64,000 bases of DNA from Parcubacteria group bacterium (GCA_016188775.1 JACPHC010000003.1:344-64343); one strand, 5' to 3'; positions 1,895-63,199 are shown, counted from the stretch's first letter. Made by a program: numbers and translations. The notes: generated by a model not told the origin, from the letters alone.

Positions 1895-2010
1895 AGATTG
1901 CTTCGCTTTCAGCTCGCAATGACAACCAGTTCAGCTCGCAATAATATAAAAATATTTAACTGTCATTGCGAGGCGATGGAATCGCCGAAGCAATCTCTCT
2001 TAATATATTC
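1895..2010. mobile_element. Rearranged fragments of MITE-like element B (GTCATTGCGAG terminal inverted repeats): two left-end copies and one right end
   Basis: GCTCGCAATGACA occurs twice, followed by TGTCATTGCGAGGCGATGGAATCGCCGAAGCAATC. These match the reverse complement of element ends at 62517-62611 and 63060-63199. Confidence 0.6.
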
Positions 2011-2031
2011 AACAATCTTACAAGCAAAACA

Positions 2032-4932
2032 ATGTTCAATAAACACAAAAACGCCGGTTTCGCGACCTTGCTGACAATAGTAATTATTTTAGGCCTTAGC
2101 CTGATTATCGTCAGCGGTTTTTCCGTTGCCAGTCTGTCTAATATCCGTGAATCCAAACGCGCTATTAACTCTTCTAAAACTCAATACGTCGCCGAGGCTG
2201 GGATCGAAGACAGTCTTTATCGGATTATAGCCGGGAAACAATACACGGCGACTAATAATTTAGCGGTTGGCGAAGGAACCGCCATCACTAACATTACCGA
2301 TGTTTCCGGCAATAAAATTATCACTTCTCTGGGCAACCGAGAAAATATTTTTAGAAAACTGGAAACAAAATTATCCGTTTCCACTCAAAGCGTTCAATTT
2401 TTCTACGGCGCTCAAATCGGCGAAGGGGGCGCCACTCTTAATAATGGCGCCGAAATCAATGGCAATGTCTATTCCAACGGCAATATTGTAATGACTGCCA
2501 ACGCTAAAATTAGCGGCGGCGCTATTGTGGCCGGCGGCATCGCCCCAACGCCCGATCAGCAATGGACCATTGGAAATTCCGATTTTCCTTTTGGACTGAC
2601 CACTGGCACAACCGCCATCACCGTTGATGAGCCGGGCGATATCGGCGACTATAACGCATTAACTTTGGGTTCTGACGGACTAGCCCGGATCAGCTATTAC
2701 GACGCGTCCAATAATGATCTTAAATACGTCCGTTGTACTTCAGCCGACTGTGTTTCAAAAAATATTACTACAATTGATTCTAGCGGCGATGTCGGATTTC
2801 GTTATACTTCCATTGCCATTGCCCTGGATGGATTGGCCCGAATCAGTTATTACAATAATACTAACGGCGACCTAAAATACGTTCAATGCGCCAATGACGA
2901 CTGCACGACAAAAAATATCGCCACTATTGATTCCAGTGGCGATGTCGGCCAATTCAACTCTCTGGCTTTAGGCACTGACGGATTGGCCCGAATCAGCTAT
3001 TACGCCGTCTCGGGCGGCAATCTTAAATTCCTTCACTGTTTGAACGATAACTGTTCATTGCGAAACACTTACACTGTTGACTCAATTGGCGATGTGGGCA
3101 AATACACTTCAATAGTCTTGGATCAAAACAACATCGCGATGATCAGTTATCTTGACGAAACCAATGATGATTTAAAATTTACCCAATGTTTAAATGTTGA
3201 TTGCTCCGCGGTCAATAATTACATCGTTGACTCAACCGGCGATGTCGGCCAATTCAAAACTTCCATCGCTCTTGGGTCTGACGAACTGGCCCGAATCAGT
3301 TATTATGACGACACGGGTAAGGATCTTAAATACGCTCAATGTTTAAACATCAGTTGCACGCTTAAAAATATAACTATTGTGGACTCGGCAGATCAAGTTG
3401 GAAAATACAGCTCGCTTCGACTTAATCCGGCTGACGGATTGGCCCGAATTTCTTATTATGACGCGACCAACGGCGCTGCTAAATTCGCCCGATGCTTAAA
3501 CGATTCTTGCTCCCAAAAAAATATTTCCACTCCGGATACCACCGGCAATGTCGGGCTTTACACTTCTTTGGCGATGGCTCAAGACGGCTTTGGCCAAATC
3601 AGTTATCGCGATGACACGAATCAGGATTTAAAATTTCTCAAATGCGCTGATCCGGATTGTAATCCGGGACAAACCACCGGCGACGCGGCTCAAAGTTTTA
3701 TTCCGTCAGCCACTAATCTTTTGCGTAAAATCAGCCTCAATATCAAAAAAATCGGCAGTCCGGGTGATGCCACCGTCAGGATAATGGCCAATAAATCTCC
3801 ACAAAATGTTCCGGATAAAGATAATACATTAACCACTGGCACGCTTTATTCTTCGATGGTCACTGGCAGTTATGGCTGGGTGGACGCGGCTTTTGTCACT
3901 AATCCGACTTTAAATATCGGACAAACTTATTGGATTGTTATTGACGCGGTTAATGATTCCAATAATTATTGGGTTTGGGCTAAAGATAATACCGACGCTT
4001 ATGTTTCCGGCACTGGTAAATTCGCTTTAAATTGGGATATTTCGCCCAATAACTGGTCAAGCGCGGGCGGCGATCTTGATTTTAAAACTTGGATGGCCGG
4101 AACTGTGACGAAAATAGATGGTGGCGTTGTTTCCGACGCGGCTCAAGCCAATACTTTAATCAACACCAAAATCTGCGGGGACGCTTATTTTCAAGCCATT
4201 GACGCTTTTTCGCTCAATTTCGTCAATAATCCGACCAATCCCGATTGCGCTAATCCTTTAACTCCGGGCATGTCTTTTCCCGGTTCCTCCGACCCTTCTC
4301 CGCTGGCTATGCCTATTTCCGACGGCCAAATTGACGCGTGGAAAACCGACGCCCAAGCCGGCGGCGTTATTGCCGGAGATTACAACGTGACTTCTGATGT
4401 CAGTCTTGGTCCGAAAAAAATCACCGGCAATCTTAATATGACCAGTAACAATAGAACTCTGACCGTCACCGGAACAATTTATATCGCGGGCAATATAGAT
4501 ATTGCCAACAATTCAAGAATCCGCTGCGACGCTTCTTACGGGATAAATTCATGCGTTGTTGTGGCGGACGGTTGGATTCATATTTCCAATAACGGACAAT
4601 TCGCCGGATCGGGTCAGGCCGGCAGTTATATTATGCTGCTGACGACCGCTCCCTGCAAAGGAACCGGTTTTTCCAATCCGCCAACGCCTTGCGCCTCCGC
4701 CCACCATGAAGCCAGCGTTGACCTTCATAACAGCGCCACCGGAATAATTTTTTACGCCAAAAACGGACTGATTAATCTTCATAACACAGTTAATGTCACG
4801 GAATTGTCGTCTTTTAAACTGGCGCTGGATAACAACGCCGTGATAAATTACGAACAAGGACTGCAAAACGCTCAGTTCACTTCCGGCCCAAGCGCGGGCT
4901 ATAAAATCGAATACTGGAAAGAAGTGCCTTAA
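2032..4932 (+). CDS. Large pilus-associated protein: pilin-like N-terminal helix, eight tandem ~44-aa Cys-containing repeats (propeller-like) and a C-terminal beta-helix-like region; putative tip adhesin
   Basis: MFNKHKNAGFATLLTIVIILGL is a pilin-like N-terminus. The repeat unit is GDVGxYTS(I/L)AL..DGLARISYYDxTNxDLKYxxCxNxxC..KNI..IDS, eight copies. The ORF-track start at 1966 (TTG) lies inside a MITE fragment, so the ATG at 2032 is preferred. Confidence 0.6.
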   Translation: MFNKHKNAGFATLLTIVIILGLSLIIVSGFSVASLSNIRESKRAINSSKTQYVAEAGIEDSLYRIIAGKQYTATNNLAVGEGTAITNITDVSGNKIITSLGNRENIFRKLETKLSVSTQSVQFFYGAQIGEGGATLNNGAEINGNVYSNGNIVMTANAKISGGAIVAGGIAPTPDQQWTIGNSDFPFGLTTGTTAITVDEPGDIGDYNALTLGSDGLARISYYDASNNDLKYVRCTSADCVSKNITTIDSSGDVGFRYTSIAIALDGLARISYYNNTNGDLKYVQCANDDCTTKNIATIDSSGDVGQFNSLALGTDGLARISYYAVSGGNLKFLHCLNDNCSLRNTYTVDSIGDVGKYTSIVLDQNNIAMISYLDETNDDLKFTQCLNVDCSAVNNYIVDSTGDVGQFKTSIALGSDELARISYYDDTGKDLKYAQCLNISCTLKNITIVDSADQVGKYSSLRLNPADGLARISYYDATNGAAKFARCLNDSCSQKNISTPDTTGNVGLYTSLAMAQDGFGQISYRDDTNQDLKFLKCADPDCNPGQTTGDAAQSFIPSATNLLRKISLNIKKIGSPGDATVRIMANKSPQNVPDKDNTLTTGTLYSSMVTGSYGWVDAAFVTNPTLNIGQTYWIVIDAVNDSNNYWVWAKDNTDAYVSGTGKFALNWDISPNNWSSAGGDLDFKTWMAGTVTKIDGGVVSDAAQANTLINTKICGDAYFQAIDAFSLNFVNNPTNPDCANPLTPGMSFPGSSDPSPLAMPISDGQIDAWKTDAQAGGVIAGDYNVTSDVSLGPKKITGNLNMTSNNRTLTVTGTIYIAGNIDIANNSRIRCDASYGINSCVVVADGWIHISNNGQFAGSGQAGSYIMLLTTAPCKGTGFSNPPTPCASAHHEASVDLHNSATGIIFYAKNGLINLHNTVNVTELSSFKLALDNNAVINYEQGLQNAQFTSGPSAGYKIEYWKEVP
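2631..3670 (+). repeat. Eight tandem 132-nt coding repeats inside the large pilus-associated gene
   Basis: Recurring GACGGATTGGCCCGAATCAG(C/T)TATTAC at 132-nt spacing (around 2679, 2830, 2983, 3284, 3436). Confidence 0.75.
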
Positions 4933-4950
4933 ACTTTACGAGGCTTAAAC

Positions 4951-4973
4951 TTTACGAGGCTAAGCCTCGTAAA
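4951..4973. repeat. REP-like palindrome (copy 3; a half copy also at 4934-4946) overlapping the RAYT stop codon
   Basis: TTTACGAGGCTAAGCCTCGTAAA; encodes the last residues ...LRGLAS* of the RAYT on the minus strand. Confidence 0.8.
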
Positions 4974-5596
4974 TTTATTAAAGTGCTTTTTTTATACTGA
5001 ATCGGCCCGCCAAAAAATTTCATTAAAAATTTCCGTTGCGTGACTGAAGGGAAATTTTTTTTCCCAATATAATCACGAAAACTGCTCCATCGATAATTTT
5101 CCAAAAATTTCATCGCTTCTTTATAATTTTTAATTTCTTTATTTTTCCACTCTGGAGATTTCAAATCTAAAGGATTTAAATGGATATAATCAGGAATATG
5201 AAGAAATTGAGCGTCCTTTTCAACTAAAACTGCCTTAAAAGTTCCTTGAAATAAAGAACCGGTTCGTTCGTATTTTTGATTAAAATACATTGTATAACCT
5301 CCTCCTAATTTATGCATAAAATTTGCAATTCCGTTGTCCTGTCGCTGTCTTAAAAGTAAATGAAAATGATTTGGCATTAATGTAAAAACTAAAATTTCGA
5401 CTAATAATTTTCTTTTTTCAATTTTACGAGGCTTAGCCTCGTAATAAGAATTAAGCGCGGGCTTTTCGTCGTTAAATTCAAACAAGTCATGAATAAATCG
5501 AAAATAATCTTTATCATCTAAAAAAATATCGCGCTTTTCCACGCCACGATTATAAATATGATAAATTTTTCCTTCCGTGAATTTTATTTTTCTCAT
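4952..5596 (-). CDS. REP-associated tyrosine transposase (RAYT; IS200/IS605-like Y1 transposase)
   Basis: IYHIYNRGVEKRDIF ... LMPNHFHLLL (HuH motif) ... YTMYFNQKY (catalytic Tyr region). Flanked by REP palindromes. Confidence 0.75.
   Translation of the reverse strand: MRKIKFTEGKIYHIYNRGVEKRDIFLDDKDYFRFIHDLFEFNDEKPALNSYYEAKPRKIEKRKLLVEILVFTLMPNHFHLLLRQRQDNGIANFMHKLGGGYTMYFNQKYERTGSLFQGTFKAVLVEKDAQFLHIPDYIHLNPLDLKSPEWKNKEIKNYKEAMKFLENYRWSSFRDYIGKKNFPSVTQRKFLMKFFGGPIQYKKSTLINLRGLAS
5424..5444. repeat. REP-like palindrome (copy 4) located inside the RAYT CDS, in frame (encodes YYEAKPRK)
   Basis: TTACGAGGCTTAGCCTCGTAA within 4952..5596. Confidence 0.75.
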
Positions 5597-5605
5597 AAAA
5601 TAATT

Positions 5606-5626
5606 TTATGAGGCTTAGCCTCGTAA
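5606..5626. repeat. REP-like palindrome (copy 5), 10 nt upstream of the RAYT start
   Basis: TTATGAGGCTTAGCCTCGTAA. Confidence 0.8.
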
Positions 5627-5670: not shown

Positions 5671-6753
5671 ATGTCATTTTTTTCTTTCAAAGAAACCGCT
5701 ATCGGCCTTGATATTTCCGATTATTCGATTAAAGCCGTTTATTTAAAAAATACGCGCCAAGGTAAAATTATTAAAAATCTTTTTGAACTAGCCATACCGC
5801 CGGGCTTAATTAATCAAGGAGAAATTCAAAATCAGGATAAACTTTTTGAAATTTTTAAAGAATTTTTAAAAAAAATTAAGGCCAGCCGAATTAAAACGCC
5901 CTATATCGTCTCTTCTTTGCCGGAAGAAAAATCATTTATCTCGGTTATTCAGCTCCCCAAAATGGAAGAGAAAGAAATAGGATCGGCTCTTGGTTTTGAA
6001 ATTGAGGCTAATGTTCCTTACGCCTTTCAAGAAGTTTATTTTGACTGGAAAAGCCTGCCTTCGGCCAGCCTCGATCATCTGGATATTCTGGTCGCGGCTT
6101 CGCCTAAAAAAATAGTTGATTCTTATTTTTCTCTTCTCAAGCGCCTAAAACTTATATCGGTCGCTTTTGAAATTGAATCGCAAGCCATTGCCAGAGCTTT
6201 AATCAAAAATGAAATCCAAGAAAAACCGATATTGCTTATTGATTTAGGCGCGACCCGCACCAGTTTCATTATTTTTTCCGGCGGCTCTATTCGTTTTACT
6301 TCTTCCATCCCCGTCTCGTCCAAAGATTTAACTTCAGCTATCGCTGACGTCCTAAAAATTCCGGAAAATGAAGCCGAAATTTTAAAAATCAAACACGGGC
6401 TTGATAAAAAAGGGACGGAAGGAATTAAAATATTTGACGCGATTCTGCCGCGCCTAACCGCTCTCATTGAAAAAATTCAAAATCTCATTATTTTTTACCA
6501 AAGCCACGCCAAACACGAACACGGCCGGATTTTGGAATTCGAAAATATTCTTCTTTCCGGCGGAGGCGCCAATCTGGCCGGCCTTTCTCAATATTTAAAA
6601 GAGGAATTAAAACGAAAAATTGGATTAGGCAACCCTTTCGTTAATCTGGCAAAATCGCCAACAAAATTTTTATCTGATCTGGCGCCTGATAAGGCCGTCG
6701 CCTTCACCACCGCCATTGGCCTGGCTTTAAGAAACATTGAAACGGAAATTTAA
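5671..6753 (+). CDS. pilM: Type IV pilus assembly protein PilM (actin-like ATPase)
   Basis: N-terminus AIGLDISDYSIKAVYL, a typical PilM start, plus an actin-fold sugar-kinase-like pattern. Confidence 0.8.
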   Translation: MSFFSFKETAIGLDISDYSIKAVYLKNTRQGKIIKNLFELAIPPGLINQGEIQNQDKLFEIFKEFLKKIKASRIKTPYIVSSLPEEKSFISVIQLPKMEEKEIGSALGFEIEANVPYAFQEVYFDWKSLPSASLDHLDILVAASPKKIVDSYFSLLKRLKLISVAFEIESQAIARALIKNEIQEKPILLIDLGATRTSFIIFSGGSIRFTSSIPVSSKDLTSAIADVLKIPENEAEILKIKHGLDKKGTEGIKIFDAILPRLTALIEKIQNLIIFYQSHAKHEHGRILEFENILLSGGGANLAGLSQYLKEELKRKIGLGNPFVNLAKSPTKFLSDLAPDKAVAFTTAIGLALRNIETEI

Positions 6754-6757
6754 GTAT

Positions 6758-6921
6758 AGACCTTTTACAAAATAATTTTTCCTACTCTAATTCTCAAATT
6801 TCGGCTGTAAATTATTCAGAGCTCCTCAACGTATTTTAATCAAATACGCTTCGTCGCTCTTCATAATTTTCGCTCGAAATTTGCGAATTTCGTTACGAAA
6901 AAATTATTTCGCAAAAAGTCT
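6758..6921 (+). mobile_element. MITE-like element A, copy 1 (terminal inverted repeats AGACCTTTTACAAAATAAT / ATTATTTCGCAAAAAGTCT); the right end abuts the pilN ATG
   Basis: About 165 nt, bounded by ~19-bp imperfect inverted repeats. Homologous to 7460-7612 and to the reverse complement of 36810-37005. Lacks the 34-nt internal hairpin present in the other copies. Confidence 0.7.
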
Positions 6922-7456
6922 TATGCCAATTAATCTTTTGCCTCCGGACCAAAAAGAGGCGTTAAAATGGACGAGAATTTTTCATATCGTCAACTATTAT
7001 AGTTTCGGACTTGGAGCTCTTTTTATTATTTTGGCCGCTGTTTTTTATCTGATAAATTTTTACGGCAATTTTGAATTAAAACTGCTGGAAAAACTACTGG
7101 AAGCGGAAAAAGGCGGATCGAAATGGGCAAAAATCGTTCAACAAGAAAAAGAGATCGAGAAAGGGCGAACTCTTTTGAGCGCCTATGAAAAAAATCAAAA
7201 AGAAATTAAATCAATTCTTCCCTTCCTCGATAAAATTTCAGCGATTACGCCTCAAGGAGTATTTCTGACTTCGCTTTCTCTGGACGTGGGCGGACAGGCG
7301 AGTATTGCTGGCTACTCGCCCGACCGAAGCCGGGTCAAAGACATAGAAAACGCCCTCAAAAACGACCCGACGTTTCAAAATATCAGTTCTCCGGCCTCAA
7401 ACTTTTTAAAACCCATTGATATCAATTTTAAATTTTCTTTTACGATAAAAAAATAG
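6922..7456 (+). CDS. pilN: Type IV pilus assembly protein PilN
   Basis: MPINLLPP (the INLLP hallmark of PilN) followed by a single transmembrane segment. The track start at 6881 (TTG) falls inside the MITE; ATG 6922 is preferred. Confidence 0.7.
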
Positions 7457-7459
7457 CAT

Positions 7460-7612
7460 AGACCTCTTGCAAAATAATCTTTTCTACTCCAATTCTCAAA
7501 TTTCGGGTGTCAACCCTACGGGTGATCTCCCGTAGGGAGACAAATTATTCAGAGCTTCTCAACGTATTTTGATTAAAATACGCTTCGTCGCTCTTCATAA
7601 TTTTCGCAAAAA
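7460..7612 (+). mobile_element. MITE-like element A, copy 2 (right end internally deleted); contains the CCCTACGGG-TGATCT-CCCGTAGGG hairpin
   Basis: Left inverted repeat AGACCTCTTGCAAAATAAT at 7460. The 9-bp stem hairpin sits at 7514-7537. The right end is truncated after ...TTTTCGCAAAAA. Confidence 0.65.
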
Positions 7613-7758
7613 TTTTAATCTCCGGCCTATCCGCTCTATTCGTTGTAATAATTTTATTTTTTCTGGCGATTTTTCCTTTATCCAAAAAAATCAAGGAAAC
7701 GTCAAATAAAATATCCGAAACGAGATATGAAATTTTAAAAATCGCCAAGAAAAAACAA

Positions 7759-8145
7759 ATGAGCCGAAAAATAGAAGATCAATTCGAAAAAACTCAAAAA
7801 GATCTGCCGGAAATTAAAAACGCCTTATTCGATCCGGAAAAATTAGTGGATCTGGTGGTGACCTTGGAAGACATAGCGGCCGAAACATCAACCCAGCTTA
7901 ATATCGGCGAATCAAACACGCAGCAAAAATTCATCAATTTCTCCGTCAATCTCTGGGGAAATTTTACTAATTTTTACCGTTTTATAAAAAAAATAGAAAA
8001 TCTGCCGTATCTCGATCAAATTGACACTATCGCGATTAAAAAACTGGAACCGCAGGAAATTGCCGTTCGCAATCAAAACGGAGGCCCGATTCTCGGATCG
8101 GGCGATATTGGAGCGGTTATGAAATTTAAAATATTTACTCAATGA
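7759..8145 (+). CDS. pilO: PilO-like pilus assembly protein (periplasmic domain). The N-terminal transmembrane segment is encoded in frame upstream, from 7573, without a canonical start codon.
   Basis: Position in the pilM-pilN-pilO order. The upstream in-frame translation gives ...ILISGLSALFVVIILFFLAIFPL (a TM helix) with no ATG, GTG or TTG between the stop at 7570 and 7759. Confidence 0.5.
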   Translation: MSRKIEDQFEKTQKDLPEIKNALFDPEKLVDLVVTLEDIAAETSTQLNIGESNTQQKFINFSVNLWGNFTNFYRFIKKIENLPYLDQIDTIAIKKLEPQEIAVRNQNGGPILGSGDIGAVMKFKIFTQ

Positions 8146-12569: not shown

Positions 12570-13094
12570 TTAAAACAAATCCGGATGGATAAATTTCACT
12601 AAAGCCGCGATAACCCCGTCTTGATAGGCCTTGGTTCTAGTGAGAGCGTTTTTAGTCATCAAACCAAAATGACCTTCGATTTGTTTTGAGTTTTTTCTTT
12701 TAAAAACCGCGTCGTTAATTTCTCCAAGCTCCATCCCTTTTTTCATCATAGCAACCATTTTCAATGGAATAAGCATTTTAATTGTCGAACCAATACTTTC
12801 GTTATTATTTTTATCTAAAATAACAATCCAGCCGCATTCAAAATAATCCTTGTTTATTTTTTGCGTTCCGCCCTCAAGGCCGACTCCAAAGTCGGCTTTT
12901 AATGCTCTAACAGCCAATTTCGCCCTGTTTCTGGCGCCTAAAATAGCTTCCTTATCGCTCATTGGCTGCTTAGAAACTCCGGATTCCACGGCTAAACCGT
13001 GAATCTTGAATTTTTTATCCGGCCATACTTTTTGAAACGCCGCTCTGGCCGCTTCAATTTTTACCGGATTTTTAGACCCAACCGCGATTTTCAT
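12570..13094 (-). CDS. YjjX-like non-canonical purine NTP phosphatase (inosine/xanthosine triphosphatase family)
   Basis: AVESGVS, GARNRA and a C-terminal pattern similar to E. coli YjjX. Confidence 0.65.
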   Translation of the reverse strand: MKIAVGSKNPVKIEAARAAFQKVWPDKKFKIHGLAVESGVSKQPMSDKEAILGARNRAKLAVRALKADFGVGLEGGTQKINKDYFECGWIVILDKNNNESIGSTIKMLIPLKMVAMMKKGMELGEINDAVFKRKNSKQIEGHFGLMTKNALTRTKAYQDGVIAALVKFIHPDLF

Positions 13095-13286: not shown

Positions 13287-13835
13287 ATGCAAATCAAAAG
13301 ACTTGCAAGAAATTTTTATACAAAGCCGACTTTAGGGGTGGCTAAAAATCTTTTGGGTAAATATATTGTCAGGAAATGGCGAGGCAAAAAATTAAAAGGA
13401 ATGATTGTTGAGACAGAGGCGTATATTGGGCCGCAAGATCGCGCTTCGCACGCTTATCGCTGGAAAATCACGAACAGAAATAAGGTTGAATATTTAGCCG
13501 GCGGCCGCGTTTACATTTATTTAGTTTACGGCATGTATTGGCAGTTAAATATTGTTACGAATCGCAAGGGGCATCCGGAATGCGTTTTAATTAGAGCTAT
13601 TATTCCAGATGATTTAGAATTTAAAAGTTTAGTTAACGGTCCGGGCAAACTTTGCCGTTATTTAAAACTTGATAAATCTTTTTACGCGGAAAATCTAATA
13701 AAAAGCAAAAGAATCTGGCTTGAAGACAGAGGAATAAAAATTAAACCAAAAGATATTTTAGCAACTCCCAGAATCGGAATTGATTACGCCGGGCCATATT
13801 GGGCAAAAAGAAAATGGCGGTTTTTAATCAAATAA
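13287..13835 (+). CDS. mpg: DNA-3-methyladenine glycosylase (Mpg/AAG family)
   Basis: ETEAYIGPQDRASHA ... GGRVYIYLVYGMYWQLNIV ... VLIRA, the Pfam 3-methyladenine glycosylase pattern. Confidence 0.8.
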   Translation: MQIKRLARNFYTKPTLGVAKNLLGKYIVRKWRGKKLKGMIVETEAYIGPQDRASHAYRWKITNRNKVEYLAGGRVYIYLVYGMYWQLNIVTNRKGHPECVLIRAIIPDDLEFKSLVNGPGKLCRYLKLDKSFYAENLIKSKRIWLEDRGIKIKPKDILATPRIGIDYAGPYWAKRKWRFLIK

Positions 13836-32433: not shown

Positions 32434-32473
32434 TTTTACATATTTTCAAACGATCGTTTAAAAATATGTAAAA
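32434..32473. repeat. 40-bp palindrome with CGATCG core (TTTTACATATTTTCAAACGATCGTTTAAAAATATGTAAAA)
   Basis: Near-identical to the copy at 44299-44338. Confidence 0.75.
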
Positions 32474-34938: not shown

Positions 34939-35273
34939 ACCAAAAATAAAAAATACTCATAAAAACTGCCGACTCGCAATAACTTCGTTAATTTAATAAA
35001 AACAATAAATAAATTTTACCCACTTTTACGCTATCGCTGAAATATAGGTAAATTTACAAAAAAACTTGACAAAATTTTTTATAGTAATATAATAAAAATA
35101 TATAAAAAAGTTAATAAGATTTAGGCCTGCGAAAAGCGGGAACCTAAAAAGGAAAGGGCAAAGCTCAAACAAGAGCTCCAGTCTATCCCTAAAGGGCGAC
35201 GGAGTTATTGTTTGAGCTTTTTTGTATAATTAGACCTTTAAAAACAAAGAAACAACTAGAAAGGAGGAGGCAA

Positions 35274-35757: not shown

Positions 35758-35801
35758 AAATTTACACCTTTACGGACGATCGTCCGTAAAGGTGTAAATT
35801 T
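35758..35801. repeat. 44-bp perfect palindrome with CGATCG core (AAATTTACACCTTTACGGACGATCGTCCGTAAAGGTGTAAATTT)
   Basis: Shares the central ACGATCGT with the 32434 and 44299 palindromes; the arms differ. Confidence 0.7.
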
Positions 35802-35845: not shown

Positions 35846-35960
35846 GCTAATTTTATCCAATCTGACAAGCTTAAATTCTCCGGCCTTAATTTTGGATCAA
35901 GGCCGGATTTTTTCAGCCAAATCTCGACTTTTTCTTTATCAAGGCCGAGGTTTTTAAATC
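35846..35960 (-). pseudogene. Diverged duplicate of the ksgA 3' end (encodes ...GLDPKLRPENLSLSDWIKLAKVSF*) immediately downstream of the functional gene
   Basis: About 115 nt, roughly 80% identical to 35990-36075. Confidence 0.55.
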
Positions 35961-35982
35961 TTACGATGCTAAGCCTCGTAAG
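35960..35982. repeat. REP-like palindrome (copy 6, one mismatch) forming the last codons and stop of ksgA
   Basis: CTTACGATGCTAAGCCTCGTAAG; the minus-strand reading gives ...VLRGLAS*. Confidence 0.75.
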
Positions 35983-36809
35983 ACTACTAATTTTATCCAA
36001 TCTTTTAAGCTTAAATTCTCCGGTCTTAATTTTGGATTAAGACCGGCTTTTTTTATCCAAATTTCAGTCTTTGCTTTATCCATACTTAAATTTTTTGAAA
36101 GCGTGTTTAAAATAGTTTTTCGTTTTCCTTGAAAAGCCGGCCGAGCGATTTTAAAAATTTTTTTTGTTTCCTTTTTTAAAGGTTTTTTAGTTTTAGGAAT
36201 AATTTTTAAAATCGCCGAATCCACTTTTGGCTGGGGCCAAAAAGAGCCTTTTTTCACATAATCCGCGATTTGGGCGTTAGCAAAAATTTGAACGCTCAAG
36301 GCTAATAAATTCATATCCGGCGGCCGAGCCAATATTCTTTGCCCCACTTCTTTTTGAACCATAATAATCATTTTTTGAGGCTGAAATTCGGAATCTAAAA
36401 ATTTTTGAATCACTCGTGAAGCGATATTGTAAGGCAAATTAGCCACCAGCGCGTAATTTTTCGCCAAATTAAGGCTTTGAATATCCAATTTCAAAATATC
36501 GGCCTGGATCAGCCGGATATTTTGAAGATTTTCTGATTCAAAAATGCCAGCGGCGATTTGAGCCAGTTGTTTATCTTTTTCAATCGCGACAACTTTTTTC
36601 GCTTTTCTCGCCAAAGCCACGGTCAAAGTTCCAAGACCGGCGCCTATTTCCAAAACTTCATCTTCCTTTTTTAAATCCGCGGCTTGAATAATTTTTTCTA
36701 AAACTCCGGGGTTAATTAAAAAATTCTGGCCTAAAGATTTCTTGGGATAAATATGATGTTGGGCTAAAATTTTTTTAATACTGACAGCCGAAAAAAAATT
36801 ATCACTCAT
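35961..36809 (-). CDS. ksgA: 16S rRNA (adenine1518/1519-N6)-dimethyltransferase
   Basis: SLGQNFL ... EIGAGLG ... NLPYNI motifs. Confidence 0.9.
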   Translation of the reverse strand: MSDNFFSAVSIKKILAQHHIYPKKSLGQNFLINPGVLEKIIQAADLKKEDEVLEIGAGLGTLTVALARKAKKVVAIEKDKQLAQIAAGIFESENLQNIRLIQADILKLDIQSLNLAKNYALVANLPYNIASRVIQKFLDSEFQPQKMIIMVQKEVGQRILARPPDMNLLALSVQIFANAQIADYVKKGSFWPQPKVDSAILKIIPKTKKPLKKETKKIFKIARPAFQGKRKTILNTLSKNLSMDKAKTEIWIKKAGLNPKLRPENLSLKDWIKLVVLRGLAS

Positions 36810-37005
36810 AAGACCTTTTGCGAAATAATTTTTCGTAACGAAATTCGCAAATTTCGAGCGAAAATTATGAAGAGCGACGAAGCGTATTTTAATTAAAATA
36901 CGTTGAGGAGCTCTGAATAATTTGTCTCCCTACGGGAGATCACCCGTAGGGTTGACACCCGAAATTTGAGAATTGGAGTAGAAAAGATTATTTTGCAAGA
37001 GGTCT
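36810..37005 (-). mobile_element. MITE-like element A, copy 3 (full length, with the internal hairpin). Its right end abuts the ksgA ATG; its left inverted repeat contributes the uvrD/pcrA stop codon.
   Basis: The reverse complement matches 7460-7612 and 6758-6921. Terminal inverted repeats are AGACCTCTTGCAAAATAAT / ATTATTTCGCAAAAGGTCT. Confidence 0.7.
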
Positions 37006-38938
37006 AAAAGATTATGATTTCTTCATTTTGTCCTACTCCTTCCGCTTCGTTAAATTCCACCAGATGTTCGGGAATATCGGCCAAAAACCTGGAAGGAGAA
37101 TTGATTGAATTTAGGCCGTAAAGAGTCCTGGAGCGGGTAAAAATCAAATGAAGCCTTTCTTTAGCCCGGGTCATTCCGACATAGCAAAGCCGTCTTTCTT
37201 CTTCAAGCTCGGCTGGATTCGTCAAACTGTCCCGCCAGGGAAGCAACCCTTCTTCGCAGCCGATAATAAAAACCGCCGGGAATTCCAGTCCTTTAGCCGC
37301 GTGGATGGTCATTAAACTGACCGCGTTTTTCTCGTCCATTTCGTCTCCGGAGCTAAAAAGCGAAACATGCGTTAAAAACTCCGGCAAAGTTTTTTGAGCC
37401 GGCTCATTGCCCCAATTTTTCGCCGCGCCCAAAAGTTCTTGAATATTTTCCCGGCGATCGTTATGACTCAACTCGGCCTCATTTTTTAAATAATCAAAAT
37501 AGCCGGTTTTCTCCATTATTAATTTGATCAAAGAATTGAGGCTTAAAGCCTCGCTTTCTTTTTTTAATTCTTCCATAAGAGAGAAAAAGCTTTTGACGTT
37601 TGAATTTAAATTCGCGGCTTCAATGAGCCCCTTTTGGAAAATCAGCTCTTGAGTTTTTTTGCCAATGCCCCTGGGAGGCGTATTGATAATTCTCAAAAGA
37701 GAAATTCTATCCGCTTCATTTTGAATGATTTTTAAATAAGACAAAGCGTCTTTAATTTCTTTTCGCGACCAAAATTTCACTCCGCCGATAATCCGATAAG
37801 GAATTTTTTCAGCTAAAAACGCTTCTTCCTGGGCCCGGGATTGAGCGTTAGTCCGGTAAAGCACGGCAAAATCTTTCGGTTTTAATTTATTTTCCCGCAT
37901 TAGATATTTTATTTCTTCCACCACCAGCCGAGCTTCGGATTTTTCCGTGGCCGCGCTGGAAATCAAAATCGGCTGGCCGGATTGATTGGAAGTCCAAAGA
38001 TTTTTGGGTTTTTGAAAAACATTTTTGGCAATAACGCCGGAAGCGGCCTCTAAAATATTTTGGGTCGACCGGTAATTCTCGTCCAAAAAAATCACTTTGG
38101 CATCCGGATAGTCGATTTCAAAATTTAAAATATTCCGGAAATCCGCGCCTCGAAAAGAATAAATTGCTTGAGCGTCGTCGCCGACAACGCAAACATTATT
38201 ATGATTTTGGCTCAGCAGCCGGATTAAAGCGTATTGGATAGAATTAGTATCTTGATACTCGTCGATTAAAATATAGCGAAATTGTTTTTGATATTGCGCT
38301 AACGTGGCGGGAAAATTTTGAAAAAGACTGACGGTTTTAACCAAAAGATCGTCAAAATCCAAAGCGTTATTTTCTTTCAGCTTTTCCTCGTAACGTTTAA
38401 AAATAAGCCCTAAAATTTTTTGAAAAACACTGGTTTGATTTTCCAGTTCGGAAAAAAATTTTTCTCCCCGAAGTTCGTTTTTAATGGAAGAAATTTTAGC
38501 CAAAACCGCGCCGGGGTTCCATGTTTTCGGATCGAGGTTTAATTCCTCAATCGTTTTTTTGATCAGGGCTTTGGAGTCATCGTCGTCATAAATAACAAAA
38601 TCTTGATTAAAACCGAGTTTGGATATTTCTCGACGAAGAATTTTGACGCCGAAAGCGTGAAAAGTGCCTAAATACGGCAAATGAAAATTTTGAAAACCGG
38701 AGTCGGTTTTCAATAAAAGATCGCGGATCCGATTTTTCATTTCTCCGGCCGCTTTATTGGTAAAAGTTAAAGCTAAAATATTTTCCGGTTTGGTTCCCTT
38801 TTTTAAAATATAGGCCAGACGATGGGTCAAGGTTTTGGTTTTGCCAGATCCAGCTCCGGCAATAATCAAAACCGGCCCTTGAGTGGCCAGAACCGCTTCT
38901 TTTTGCCTCGAATTTAATGATTCTAAAATAAAATCCAT
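37004..38938 (-). CDS. pcrA: ATP-dependent DNA helicase, UvrD/PcrA family
   Basis: Walker A GAGSGKTKTL plus UvrD-family helicase motifs throughout. Confidence 0.9.
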   Translation of the reverse strand: MDFILESLNSRQKEAVLATQGPVLIIAGAGSGKTKTLTHRLAYILKKGTKPENILALTFTNKAAGEMKNRIRDLLLKTDSGFQNFHLPYLGTFHAFGVKILRREISKLGFNQDFVIYDDDDSKALIKKTIEELNLDPKTWNPGAVLAKISSIKNELRGEKFFSELENQTSVFQKILGLIFKRYEEKLKENNALDFDDLLVKTVSLFQNFPATLAQYQKQFRYILIDEYQDTNSIQYALIRLLSQNHNNVCVVGDDAQAIYSFRGADFRNILNFEIDYPDAKVIFLDENYRSTQNILEAASGVIAKNVFQKPKNLWTSNQSGQPILISSAATEKSEARLVVEEIKYLMRENKLKPKDFAVLYRTNAQSRAQEEAFLAEKIPYRIIGGVKFWSRKEIKDALSYLKIIQNEADRISLLRIINTPPRGIGKKTQELIFQKGLIEAANLNSNVKSFFSLMEELKKESEALSLNSLIKLIMEKTGYFDYLKNEAELSHNDRRENIQELLGAAKNWGNEPAQKTLPEFLTHVSLFSSGDEMDEKNAVSLMTIHAAKGLEFPAVFIIGCEEGLLPWRDSLTNPAELEEERRLCYVGMTRAKERLHLIFTRSRTLYGLNSINSPSRFLADIPEHLVEFNEAEGVGQNEEIIIF

Positions 38939-44298: not shown

Positions 44299-44338
44299 TT
44301 CTACATATTTTCAAACGATCGTTTGAAAATATGTAGAA
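44299..44338. repeat. 40-bp perfect palindrome with CGATCG core (TTCTACATATTTTCAAACGATCGTTTGAAAATATGTAGAA)
   Basis: Second copy of the 32434 element. Confidence 0.75.
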
Positions 44339-46240: not shown

Positions 46241-47014
46241 ATGAAAAATATAAAAACGTTTGTATCCTCTCTTTTTTTAACATTTATTTTTACTCATATT
46301 GCTTTTGCCGGCACTGCAACGCTTTCTTGGAACGCAAATACGGAAACTGATTTAGCGGGTTATAAAATATATTACGGGACATTGCCCAGAACCAATTCTT
46401 GTCCATTAGGCGGCTATCCAAACAATATCAACGCAGGCAATGTCACGTCTTATGTTTTTAGCAATTTAACTGACGGTCAAACATATTATTTCTCTATTAC
46501 GGCTTACGATGCTTCAAGCAATGAAAGTTGTTTTTCAAGCGAAGTCAGTAAATATATTCCAGTGCCAAATATATATATTTCAAATGTTAAATTTATTCCC
46601 GTTATTGAGAGCGCGACAAGTATTTCTGGTAAAAATTTCACAATAACAATTTTTAATGCCGGAACAACAACCCAAGTCGCTCAATTTACGACTCAACTCG
46701 ATCAATCAGGAAATTTAGTAATGCCTGCGAGCATAAATATAGAAAGCGGCGTTTACGATATCCTTACTTACTCGCCGACATATCTTAAAAAGAAAAAAAA
46801 TAATACTGTTTTGTCATCCAATTCAATCACTTCTTTGCCAACATTGCCGGCTGGCGACTTAAATAATGACAATACCATAAACTCGCTTGATTGGTCATTG
46901 ATGAGTCCTAAATGGTTTAGCCAGGACGCAATAGCGGATATTAACGGAGATAATATAATCAATGCTATTGATTATAGTTTTTTAAACAAAAATTGGTGGT
47001 TGGCGGGGGATTAA
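46241..47014 (+). CDS. Secreted protein with an FN3-like domain and C-terminal dockerin-like repeats
   Basis: Signal peptide; DLNNDNTINSLD and DINGDNIINAIDYSFL resemble dockerin Ca-binding repeats. Confidence 0.55.
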   Translation: MKNIKTFVSSLFLTFIFTHIAFAGTATLSWNANTETDLAGYKIYYGTLPRTNSCPLGGYPNNINAGNVTSYVFSNLTDGQTYYFSITAYDASSNESCFSSEVSKYIPVPNIYISNVKFIPVIESATSISGKNFTITIFNAGTTTQVAQFTTQLDQSGNLVMPASINIESGVYDILTYSPTYLKKKKNNTVLSSNSITSLPTLPAGDLNNDNTINSLDWSLMSPKWFSQDAIADINGDNIINAIDYSFLNKNWWLAGD

Positions 47015-62516: not shown

Positions 62517-62650
62517 GTCATTGCGAGCAAAGCGAAGCAATCTTAAAAAGAATCGCGTAAATTTTTAAATTAAGAGATCGCTTCGGCCATTCCATCGCCT
62601 CGCAATGACGGTTAAAAGATTGTTTTTAACGATTCCATCGCCTCGCGCTG
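62517..62650. mobile_element. MITE-like element B, copy 1 (inverted repeats GTCATTGCGAG / CTCGCAATGAC) plus an extra partial right end
   Basis: TGTCATTGCGAGCAAAGCGAAGCAATC ... GATCGCTTCGGCCATTCCATCGCCTCGCAATGACGG, then GATTCCATCGCCTCGCGCTG. Confidence 0.65.
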
Positions 62651-63059
62651 TATGCTTTATTGAATAATAAATCTTACCTGTGGATAAATTGGGGAAATGA
62701 TAAAGAATTACAAATGTAAATTTATTAAACTATCTTTAAAAATCCGCTCAACCAAGCGGATTTTTAAAGATTAAACATTTGACAAATATCTTAAAAAGTT
62801 ATCAACTGAATAACCTATTGACTTCTTTCGCGCGTAGACTAAAATATAAATAGATCTTTGCGAGTTTGAAAAAATTTCCCGAATTCAACGGGAAAACAGT
62901 TCTTTTTTCAATTTTGTTCTTTGCTCAAAGTCCAATTCGGACAAACTGGCAGAGATTTGCAAATTTCTGTCTTGTTTCGAAGACAGAACCAAAGGCGCTT
63001 TAGCCCAATTTATACAAAATATATTTTAAGGGCTTATAAAGCGCCTTTTTTATTTATTT

Positions 63060-63199
63060 TGTCATTGCGAGCTGAAAGCGAAGCAATTTCAAAAAAAATC
63101 GCGTAAATTTTTAAATTAAGAGATCGCTTCGGCCATTCCATCTCCTCGCAATGACGGTTAAAAGATTGTTTTAGCGATTCCATCGCCCCGCAATGACGA
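63060..63199. mobile_element. MITE-like element B, copy 2 (about 90% identical to copy 1, with a duplicated right end)
   Basis: TGTCATTGCGAGCTGAAAGCGAAGCAAT ... CTCCTCGCAATGACGG ... GATTCCATCGCCCCGCAATGACGAG. Confidence 0.65.

Follow-up and report, generated by a model that had tools for sequence, protein, structure and literature searches.

The sequence examined here is a 64,000-nt stretch (hereafter the window) of the NCBI metagenome-assembled genome (MAG) 'Parcubacteria group bacterium' (GCA_016188775.1, JACPHC010000003.1:344-64343), within which a palindromic repeat, termed element A, recurs three times: between pilM and pilN (the PilN protein being MBI2450907.1), between pilN and pilO, and, inverted, between uvrD and ksgA. 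Proteins MBI2450905-MBI2450941, with locus tags HYV52_, belong to this MAG. The three copies (c1, c2, and c3) and the nested hairpin carried by two of them are located as follows, with positions counted from the first letter of the window:

6758-6921, plus strand: c1, 164 nt, without the nested hairpin; occupies the entire pilM-pilN gap
7460-7607, plus strand: the portion of c2 that the window contains, 148 nt; its final 47 nt are missing
7514-7537, plus strand: nested perfect hairpin CCCTACGGG-TGATCT-CCCGTAGGG in c2, the core of a 31-nt insertion relative to c1
36811-37005, minus strand (inverted): c3, 195 nt; occupies the entire uvrD-ksgA gap
36928-36951, minus strand: nested perfect hairpin CCCTACGGG-TGATCT-CCCGTAGGG in c3

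Element A (search sequence: AGACCTYTTGCRAAATAAT) is bounded by imperfect terminal inverted repeats (TIRs) of approximately 19 nt, in which 16-17 of 19 positions match, and its arms are complementary along their full length, making the element an imperfect palindrome throughout. The TIR pattern AGACCTYTTGCAAAATAAT has five matches in the window at up to three mismatches (0.15 expected; none of 100 shuffled sequences reached five), and all five are ends of the three copies. According to alignment and a repeat finder, the flanks of the copies are unrelated to one another; neither these methods nor the TIR scan revealed a weaker copy elsewhere in the window, and a marginal blastn match at 5269-5335, within the coding region of a REP-associated tyrosine transposase (RAYT), was judged to be due to chance (72% identity in AT-rich DNA). 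The 31-nt insertion, with the hairpin CCCTACGGG-N6-CCCGTAGGG as its core, is shared by c2 and c3 and occurs nowhere else in the window, c1 included. When c2 is restored to full length (see below), it is identical to c3 at 190 of 195 positions (97%), and c1 is ~94% identical to both outside the 31-nt indel, with ~9 substitutions. All six reading frames of the element are interrupted, the longest open stretch being 43 codons without a usable start.

These features confirm element A as a non-autonomous, fold-back repeat of 164-195 bp resembling a MITE (miniature inverted-repeat transposable element), with one subfamily that carries the nested 31-nt hairpin. An initial annotation of this DNA had already described a three-copy, MITE-like palindromic repeat with imperfect 19-nt TIRs and with an extra hairpin in the second and third copies only, both of which are borne out. 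The bounds given there are retained for c1 and corrected for c3 (from 36810-37005 to 36811-37005) and for the end of c2 within the window (from 7612 to 7607), which gives sizes of 164-195 nt; the end string quoted for the element, CGCAAAAAGGTCTT, proved to be a blend of c1 (CGCAAAAAGTCTT) and c3 (CGCAAAAGGTCTT). Element A is a new family of a kind already known, with a neat and recurrent junction pattern.

Description of that pattern requires the repair of a defect in the deposited contig. In the window, pilO (7608-8145) has no ATG, GTG or TTG upstream of 7759, and it is annotated from 7759 as a 128-aa hypothetical protein (MBI2450909.1). The PilO Pfam match begins upstream of 7759. An exhaustive HMMER search returned 937 PilO homologues at E ≤ 0.001; among the best 150 of these, on which alignment starts were judged, nearly all are 165-220 residues long, and the alignments mostly begin at homologue residues 2-18. 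Together, the Pfam match and the alignment starts place the true N-terminus of PilO ~50 codons upstream of the ATG at 7759, and comparison with homologues indicates that the window pilO lacks its first five codons. The missing sequence is present in three Logan contigs (L010, L011, and L012), each assembled from a separate sequencing run, which match the window with 100% identity across 915-1006 nt and contain 62 additional nucleotides:

7607-7608, no strand: contig omission point; the 62 nt TCGAAATTTGCGAATTTCGTTACGAGAAATTATTTCACAAAAGGTTTTATGAGTGAAAAACA lacking here are present in contigs from SRR12113420, SRR12113421, and SRR12113424

The omission covers the last 47 nt of c2, the T that follows it, and the first 14 nt of pilO. 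After restoration, c2 measures 195 nt and is followed by TATGAGTGAAAAAC; the copy ends ...GGTTT, then T, then ATG AGT GAA AAA CAA AAA ATT..., the latter encoding the start of PilO (MSEKQKILISG). The annotation of pilO as a 128-aa hypothetical protein is thus explained by the loss of its start with the 62 nt, and it was probably the palindromic repeat that confused the assembler. The idea that c2 is truncated and that pilO has lost its start or uses ATC or ATT is disproved by the Logan contigs that hold the 62 nt. The initial annotation had named assembly duplication as a circumstance under which the similarity between copies would lose its meaning, and the defect within c2 means that one local assembly error does exist; however, the unique flank-element junctions recur in unitig-level assemblies of separate runs (the pilM-c1 junction in Logan contigs L003/L004 to 6838, and the uvrD-c3 junction in L005 to 36977, with the contigs breaking inside the repeat), and the copies are not identical, c1 being separated from c2/c3 by the 31-nt indel and ~9 substitutions. 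An origin of the three copies in duplication by the assembler is therefore excluded.

With c2 repaired, all three copies end 1 nt short of a start codon and begin 0-4 nt past a stop codon, and in each case only element A lies between the stop and the start. The features at the two junctions that are complete in the window are:

6922-6925, plus strand: T+ATG of pilN; the right-hand TA (6922-6923) overlaps the start, and the left-hand TA is at 6757-6758
36807-36810, minus strand: T+ATG at the ksgA start, with its right-hand TA at 36810-36809
37004-37006, minus strand: uvrD stop codon TAG, made up of the flanking T37006 and AG, the first two bases of element A

The stop codon of pilM (TAA) is at 6751-6753, and the start codons of pilN and ksgA are at 6923-6925 and 36807-36809, respectively; both c1 and c3 end ...GTCT, and one T separates this end from the ATG. 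The flush position relative to start codons had been noted for two of the three copies and holds for all three after the 62-nt repair, with one T intervening; the ksgA start had been placed correctly, and that of pilN, assigned to 6922, is shifted to 6923-6925. The earlier observation that the opposite end of c3 forms the uvrD stop codon also stands. In all three cases TA is present on both flanks (TA-GACC on the left and GGTCT-TA-TG on the right), with the right-hand TA overlapping positions -1/+1 of the start; this agrees with preferential insertion at T-ATG, an alternative raised (as TTATG) in the initial annotation. Other candidate duplications fit less well, with AT perfect at two of the three copies, and TAT and TTA each at one. 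Relative to the direction in which the neighbouring genes are transcribed, the three copies are oriented alike; with respect to the plus strand, their orientation differs.

If a TA duplication is assumed, the junctions before insertion can be reconstructed as TAA-GTAT-ATG for pilM-pilN (a 4-nt spacer), TAG-CAT-ATG for pilN-pilO (a 3-nt spacer), and ATC TTT TAT GAG TGA for uvrD-ksgA (an 8-nt overlap). Overlaps of the ATGA type, the usual style of junction here, and spacers of 3-7 nt recur across the window; the junction between pilO and the next gene is an uninterrupted ATGA overlap. Given that ~12 kb of the window lies outside open reading frames (ORFs) of at least 100 aa, and that tight junctions offer less than ~50 nt, the placement of all three copies in junctions is not random.

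We propose, with a probability of roughly 0.55, that element A inserted at TA sites of the form T-ATG in tight operon junctions, that the codons at its edges were rebuilt by duplication of TA, that the start codons are native to the genes, and that the insertions seen are those that spared the reading frames, with coupling between neighbouring genes maintained through the hairpin. According to this proposal, each copy would have entered a TA formed by the base before the start codon and the A of ATG, at a very tight operon junction. The right-hand duplicated TA would rebuild the ATG, and the left-hand TA together with the G of the element would provide a TAG, such as the present uvrD stop, so that both neighbouring frames would stay intact. 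The flush position would then reflect target duplication, with no insertions surviving other than those in which both genes are spared. Element A would be co-transcribed with its neighbours, and its hairpin may bring the upstream stop codon, 0-4 nt before the helix, close to the downstream start codon, 1 nt after it. A ribosome terminating upstream could melt the basal stem and free the A/U-rich region that precedes the ATG, and translational coupling would thus persist across an insertion of 164-195 nt. If the hairpin truly preserves coupling in this way, it would represent a simple natural design for placing an insertion of ~200 nt in an operon without breakage.

Several observations weigh against this proposal. 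TA sites are abundant, and a TA target by itself leaves the restriction to junctions unexplained; moreover, the TA is identical at every copy and is inseparable from the ends of element A itself, and its duplication demands that the ends be asymmetric by 1 nt (GACC... on the left, ...GGTCT on the right). Copies c2 and c3 share 9 nt past the TIR (TATGAGTGA), including the ATG and the next 5 nt, an identity that the TA-insertion model does not predict; it keeps the start module discussed below alive at a low probability, and an extended target preference (CA-TA-TG-like) would be equally possible. The window encodes no transposase with matching ends, the only transposase-like gene being that of the RAYT, which is associated with a different repeat. 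As there are three copies and no empty site, mobility and the TA duplication are inferred only. Finally, the spacers of relatives at the same junctions are long (88 nt for pilN-pilO and 222 nt for uvrD-ksgA), which means that the case for tight junctions before insertion comes from the sequence of this genome only.

A different account of the flush start codons was put forward in the initial annotation, namely that start codons, or a portable context for the initiation of translation, are brought in by the element itself: a mobile unit ending ...GGTCTT-ATG (ATG-AGT-GA in c2/c3) would supply the start, and possibly initiation signals, to the downstream gene. TATG does follow the TIR immediately in all three copies, and the 9-nt identity of c2 and c3 (TATGAGTGA) extends 5 nt beyond the ATG, a match with a chance probability of ~1e-3; however, TATG is all that c1 has in common with them. 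The N-termini of the proteins concerned speak for native starts. PilN begins MPINLLP, and the equivalent position in a relative (contig L013) is occupied by MKLNLLP; restored PilO (MSEKQKILISG) has the same length as its homologues, the closest of which begins MTVKQKILVSG; and the N-terminus of KsgA aligns with those of 17 homologues, although it is two residues longer than in most of them (three homologues are longer still), a slight extension that is within the observed range but counts in favor of a donated start. Since all three N-termini align with homologues, those of PilN and PilO at exactly the homologues' length, the ATGs appear to be the genes' own.

Initiation signals are likewise scarce. 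The last 25 nt of element A (...TTATTTCGCAAAA(A/G)GT(C/T)TT) contain no Shine-Dalgarno core (GGAG or GAGG), the nearest approach being AAGG with a 4-nt spacing in c2/c3; in the window generally, a Shine-Dalgarno-like core is located within 20 nt of the start in ~9 of 43 ORFs of at least 150 aa, and the sequence ahead of most starts is simply A/T-rich. A weak promoter-like match directed at the downstream gene (TTAAAA-17-CATAAT) is found in c2 and c3, where 9 of 12 positions agree, and not in c1, and such matches occur across the region at only ~2x the shuffled expectation. Repeats that carry a promoter and ribosome-binding site as well as an ATG do have precedent (PMC3184786), but here three different gene starts would need to have been replaced in frame, and a TA duplication accounts for the ATG without that. 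Judged from these alignments and motifs, a role for element A as a donor of start codons is not supported, and we consider a portable start module to be unlikely.

Further copies and empty sites were sought outside the window. The eight window proteins that were looked up, PilN included, all form singleton clusters at 90% identity, and the closest homologues of KsgA and PilO are each ~53% identical, which explains why no further copy or empty site was retrieved. Scans with exact 20-mers yielded, for GTDB genomes and for JGI metagenomes, one match apiece, due to chance and located in unrelated DNA rich in GC; when IMG/VR was scanned for the TIR, a single chance match resulted, within a gene; a concatenate of the six-frame peptides of element A, searched against a 5.8-billion-protein collection for spurious ORFs over other copies, gave nothing at E ≤ 10; PilN (177 and 191 aa) and KsgA, when looked up by their exact sequences, led to no contig; and nhmmer did not find element A in the relatives L007-L009 and L013.

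One of these relatives bears directly on the choice between native and donated starts. Contig L013 (Logan SRR22387819), whose PilO is 53% identical to that of the window, harbors an unrelated 108-nt MITE at 1210-1317, with perfect 15-nt TIRs (ATCCCGTTAGAAAAT), that occupies the ATGA junction between pilO and the next gene; the window has the matching uninterrupted site. This MITE is flanked by a duplicated (AT)GA, of which the left copy forms the pilO stop and the right copy the ATG of the next gene, and a second ATCCCGTTAGAAAAT copy adjoins the pilN ATG of L013 at the contig edge (1-26). That two unrelated MITEs with different duplications lie flush with starts in the same operon points to the survival of frame-keeping insertions and argues against start codons as cargo. 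The 88-nt pilN-pilO spacer of L013 includes a strong Shine-Dalgarno sequence (AGGAGGG) before pilO. In contig L009 (JGI Ga0129287_10000025; KsgA 51% identical), uvrD-ksgA synteny is kept with a spacer of 222 nt (4898-5119). This spacer is full of GC-rich hairpins of its own, one of which is repeated at 13476-13520, and repeats of the ATTTTACA type also lie ahead of gene starts at 12617-12671 and 13454-13543 of the same contig.

Genomes of the Candidate Phyla Radiation are usually considered poor in mobile DNA. A full-text literature search for MITEs together with the Candidate Phyla Radiation returned a single paper, which dealt with a different subject. Element A and the unrelated family in L013 would illustrate one way for mobile DNA to persist in a highly compact genome, by occupying the exact space between a stop and a start codon and rebuilding both. 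A more ambitious interpretation, which we regard as speculative and rather doubtful, is that unrelated fold-back MITEs of streamlined Parcubacteria are specifically adapted to, or selected in, stop-start junctions, where they would rebuild the stop (TA+G, TGA) and the start (TA+TG, AT+GA) while the hairpin passes coupling through the insertion; in a stronger version, the c2/c3 subfamily would also carry its own ATG-AGT-GA start module.

As RNA, element A is predicted to form a single long hairpin, from which the nested hairpin branches off to the side. Folding of the full element, a check proposed in the initial annotation, gave the following energies for the strand that is sense to the flanking genes and for its complement:

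c1: sense -41.6 kcal/mol, antisense -70.0 kcal/mol
c2, restored: sense -66.1 kcal/mol, antisense -78.5 kcal/mol (folded without a shuffle control)
c3: sense -71.9 kcal/mol, antisense -90.1 kcal/mol

For c1 and c3, the z-scores of the hairpins range from -6.8 to -13.1, and dinucleotide-shuffled sequences were never as stable on either strand. The antisense strand folds better by 12-28 kcal/mol in every copy, because mismatches in the arms of the sense strand (C.A and pyrimidine-pyrimidine) become G.U and purine-purine on the antisense strand; the latter thereby acquires three symmetric 2x2 GA/GA internal loops as well as G.U pairs, and the sense strand is poor in G (11-15%). With DNA energy parameters, the difference between strands is small (-48.5 vs -44.1 kcal/mol). 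Substitutions at paired sites between copies are all transitions and, with c2 restored, five fall to one strand and two to the other, a difference that lacks significance; a previous count, in which four of four stem substitutions preserved G.U pairing on the antisense strand, was dropped on this ground. The fold asymmetry is an inherited trait of the family, in which ongoing selection is not demonstrable. Under the speculative reading of MITEs adapted to stop-start junctions, the antisense strand might fold better because an mRNA hairpin of excessive stability was selected against, or because the element has a second function at the level of RNA.

Retention of element A as a useful transcript, for example as a site where RNase III processing would uncouple the cistrons, or as an antisense or structured RNA with a regulatory role, would be in keeping with the very stable hairpins, the position of all three copies strictly between cistrons, and the GA/GA loops and G.U pairs of the antisense strand; moreover, Correia elements are processed by RNase III and ERIC sequences by RNase E (PMC10969869). 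However, a near-perfect DNA palindrome is already expected of a MITE, neither a promoter nor a terminator is consistently present on the antisense strand, the paired-site substitutions do not favor either strand significantly, and element A is not conserved in relatives. Among the Rfam 15 covariance models, only tRNAs pass the gathering threshold in the window, and at E ≤ 5 element A has two chance-level matches that are far below threshold. We therefore regard selection for an RNA function as improbable. An integron attC site, a hammerhead ribozyme, a C/D-box K-turn and a 6S RNA were also entertained and dropped, as both the defining motifs and an Rfam match are lacking.

The same strand asymmetry invites a mechanism in which the element moves as single-stranded DNA, by analogy with IS200/IS605 or RAYT systems: a folded strand would insert without duplication 3' of 5'-CATA (TATG on the sense strand), which would fix both position and orientation. 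A gene for a Y1 transposase is indeed close by, the RAYT (Y1_Tnp) at 4952-5596 on the minus strand being 1.2 kb from c1; however, it is flanked in a REPtron-like layout by inverted copies of another palindrome, TTACGAGGCTTAGCCTCGTAA, which belongs to a family different from element A. No DDE transposase is encoded among the window ORFs of at least 150 aa. The TTACGAGGCTTAGCCTCGTAA palindrome (REP) has six copies:

1278-1302
1863-1887
4948-4972
5420-5444
5602-5626
35957-35981

A possible link between the two families is offered by the 8-mer GTCTTAYG, which is common to the right end of element A with its flank and the REP's outer arm (AGTCTTACGAGG...), and which occurs seven times (1.5 expected), at:

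1864-1871
1298-1305
1883-1890
35977-35984
6918-6925
36807-36814
46447-46454

The c3 sequence GTCTTATGAG and the REP at 1864 match exactly along 10 nt. The shared 8-mer could be due to chance or could represent a common recognition or cleavage motif; this 8-mer and the strand asymmetry are the sole hints of movement as a single strand. Single-strand mobilization would further explain why all three copies are oriented alike relative to transcription and why one strand of each is 12-28 kcal/mol more stable, G.U and tandem G.A replacing C.A and U.C; but agreement in orientation across three copies has a probability of 0.25 by chance, and the asymmetry shrinks to -48.5 vs -44.1 kcal/mol when the strands are folded as single-stranded DNA. 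In addition, true TIRs and a palindrome of full length are foreign to the ends of IS200/IS605 elements, and GC skew shows no sign change between 7 kb and 37 kb, such that the copies differ in orientation relative to replication. This mechanism is hence a poor candidate next to insertion at TA sites with duplication.

Two of the TTACGAGGCTTAGCCTCGTAA REPs form the C-terminus and stop codon (...RGLAS*) of RAYT and of KsgA, respectively, and one falls within the frame that encodes RAYT. Around the REP at 35957-35981, the ksgA 3' end is present in duplicate, with one copy on each side (35847-35955 vs 35987-36095, 80% identity); the downstream, now non-coding copy encodes the more canonical C-terminus (...DWIKLAKVSF), and the live gene ends in REP-derived residues.

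In its general architecture, element A is close to the Correia/NEMIS elements of Neisseria and the RUP elements of Streptococcus pneumoniae, which are MITEs that duplicate TA and are mobilized in trans by IS630/Tc1-type transposases. The likeness extends to a length of 100-200 bp, TIRs, TA on both flanks, the lack of coding capacity, a position near genes, and a transcript that would form a long hairpin. Element A differs in that it has no sequence similarity to these families, belongs to another phylum and has no cognate transposase in the window, its copies all lie flush between a stop and a start, and its ends are offset by 1 nt if TA was duplicated. The hairpins that Correia elements form in mRNA are cleaved by RNase III, and ERIC sequences have an orientation-dependent effect on mRNA decay (PMC10969869). 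ERIC/IRU and the YPAL of enterobacteria resemble element A as imperfect palindromes of 127-170 bp that are transcribed with their neighbours and affect mRNA in an orientation-dependent manner (PMC10969869), but they have no sequence relation to it.

The Chunjie MITE, as described in PMC10969869, lies inside an operon and, like element A, is a repeat (~180-235 bp) between operon genes that leaves both genes intact; in that description, this is one operon insertion among many ordinary intergenic copies, whereas all three copies of element A are in junctions and 1 nt from an ATG. The Neisseria REP2 and Borrelia IR repeats carry a promoter and ribosome-binding site as well as an ATG (PMC3184786); they too lie immediately upstream of genes with an ATG at the edge, but element A lacks a ribosome-binding site or a convincing promoter, and its ATGs are at native positions. 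With the REP/BIME sequences associated with RAYTs, element A shares its palindromic and extragenic nature, and a RAYT and its own REPs, with the 8-mer GTCTTAYG in common, are encoded in the same window; however, REPs are single hairpins of 20-40 nt, element A measures 164-195 nt and has TIRs, and the palindrome of the RAYT is a different one.

Other repeats are dispersed through the window. Near-perfect palindromes of 40 nt (TTTTACATATTTTCAAACGATCGTTTAAAAATATGTAAAA) are found in the longer intergenic regions (32434-32473, 35014-35053, 35760-35799, and 44299-44338), and one of them scores as a bidirectional terminator-like hairpin. Copies of another family (GTCATTGCGAGGCGATGGAATCGCCGAAGCAATCT...), some direct and some inverted, lie towards either end of the window (1955-1998, 62529-62626, and 63075-63172; also 1897-1925 / 63059-63087). 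Just upstream of RAYT, the ORF at 1966-4932 encodes a repeat-containing protein of 988 aa with no Pfam match, in which an 81-nt unit occurs five times at a spacing of 150-153 nt, or double that, between 2662 and 3501. Several related GC-rich repeat blocks between 49283 and 56027, of the forms CCCGTCGGCGC(G/C)G(A/C)(A/G)GGCGG(G/C)G(T/C)GGTGTC and TAATTTACCGCCAATCCCGCCCGCC, are located at the ends of serial minus-strand ORFs without a Pfam match, which may encode paralogous surface proteins with conserved termini.

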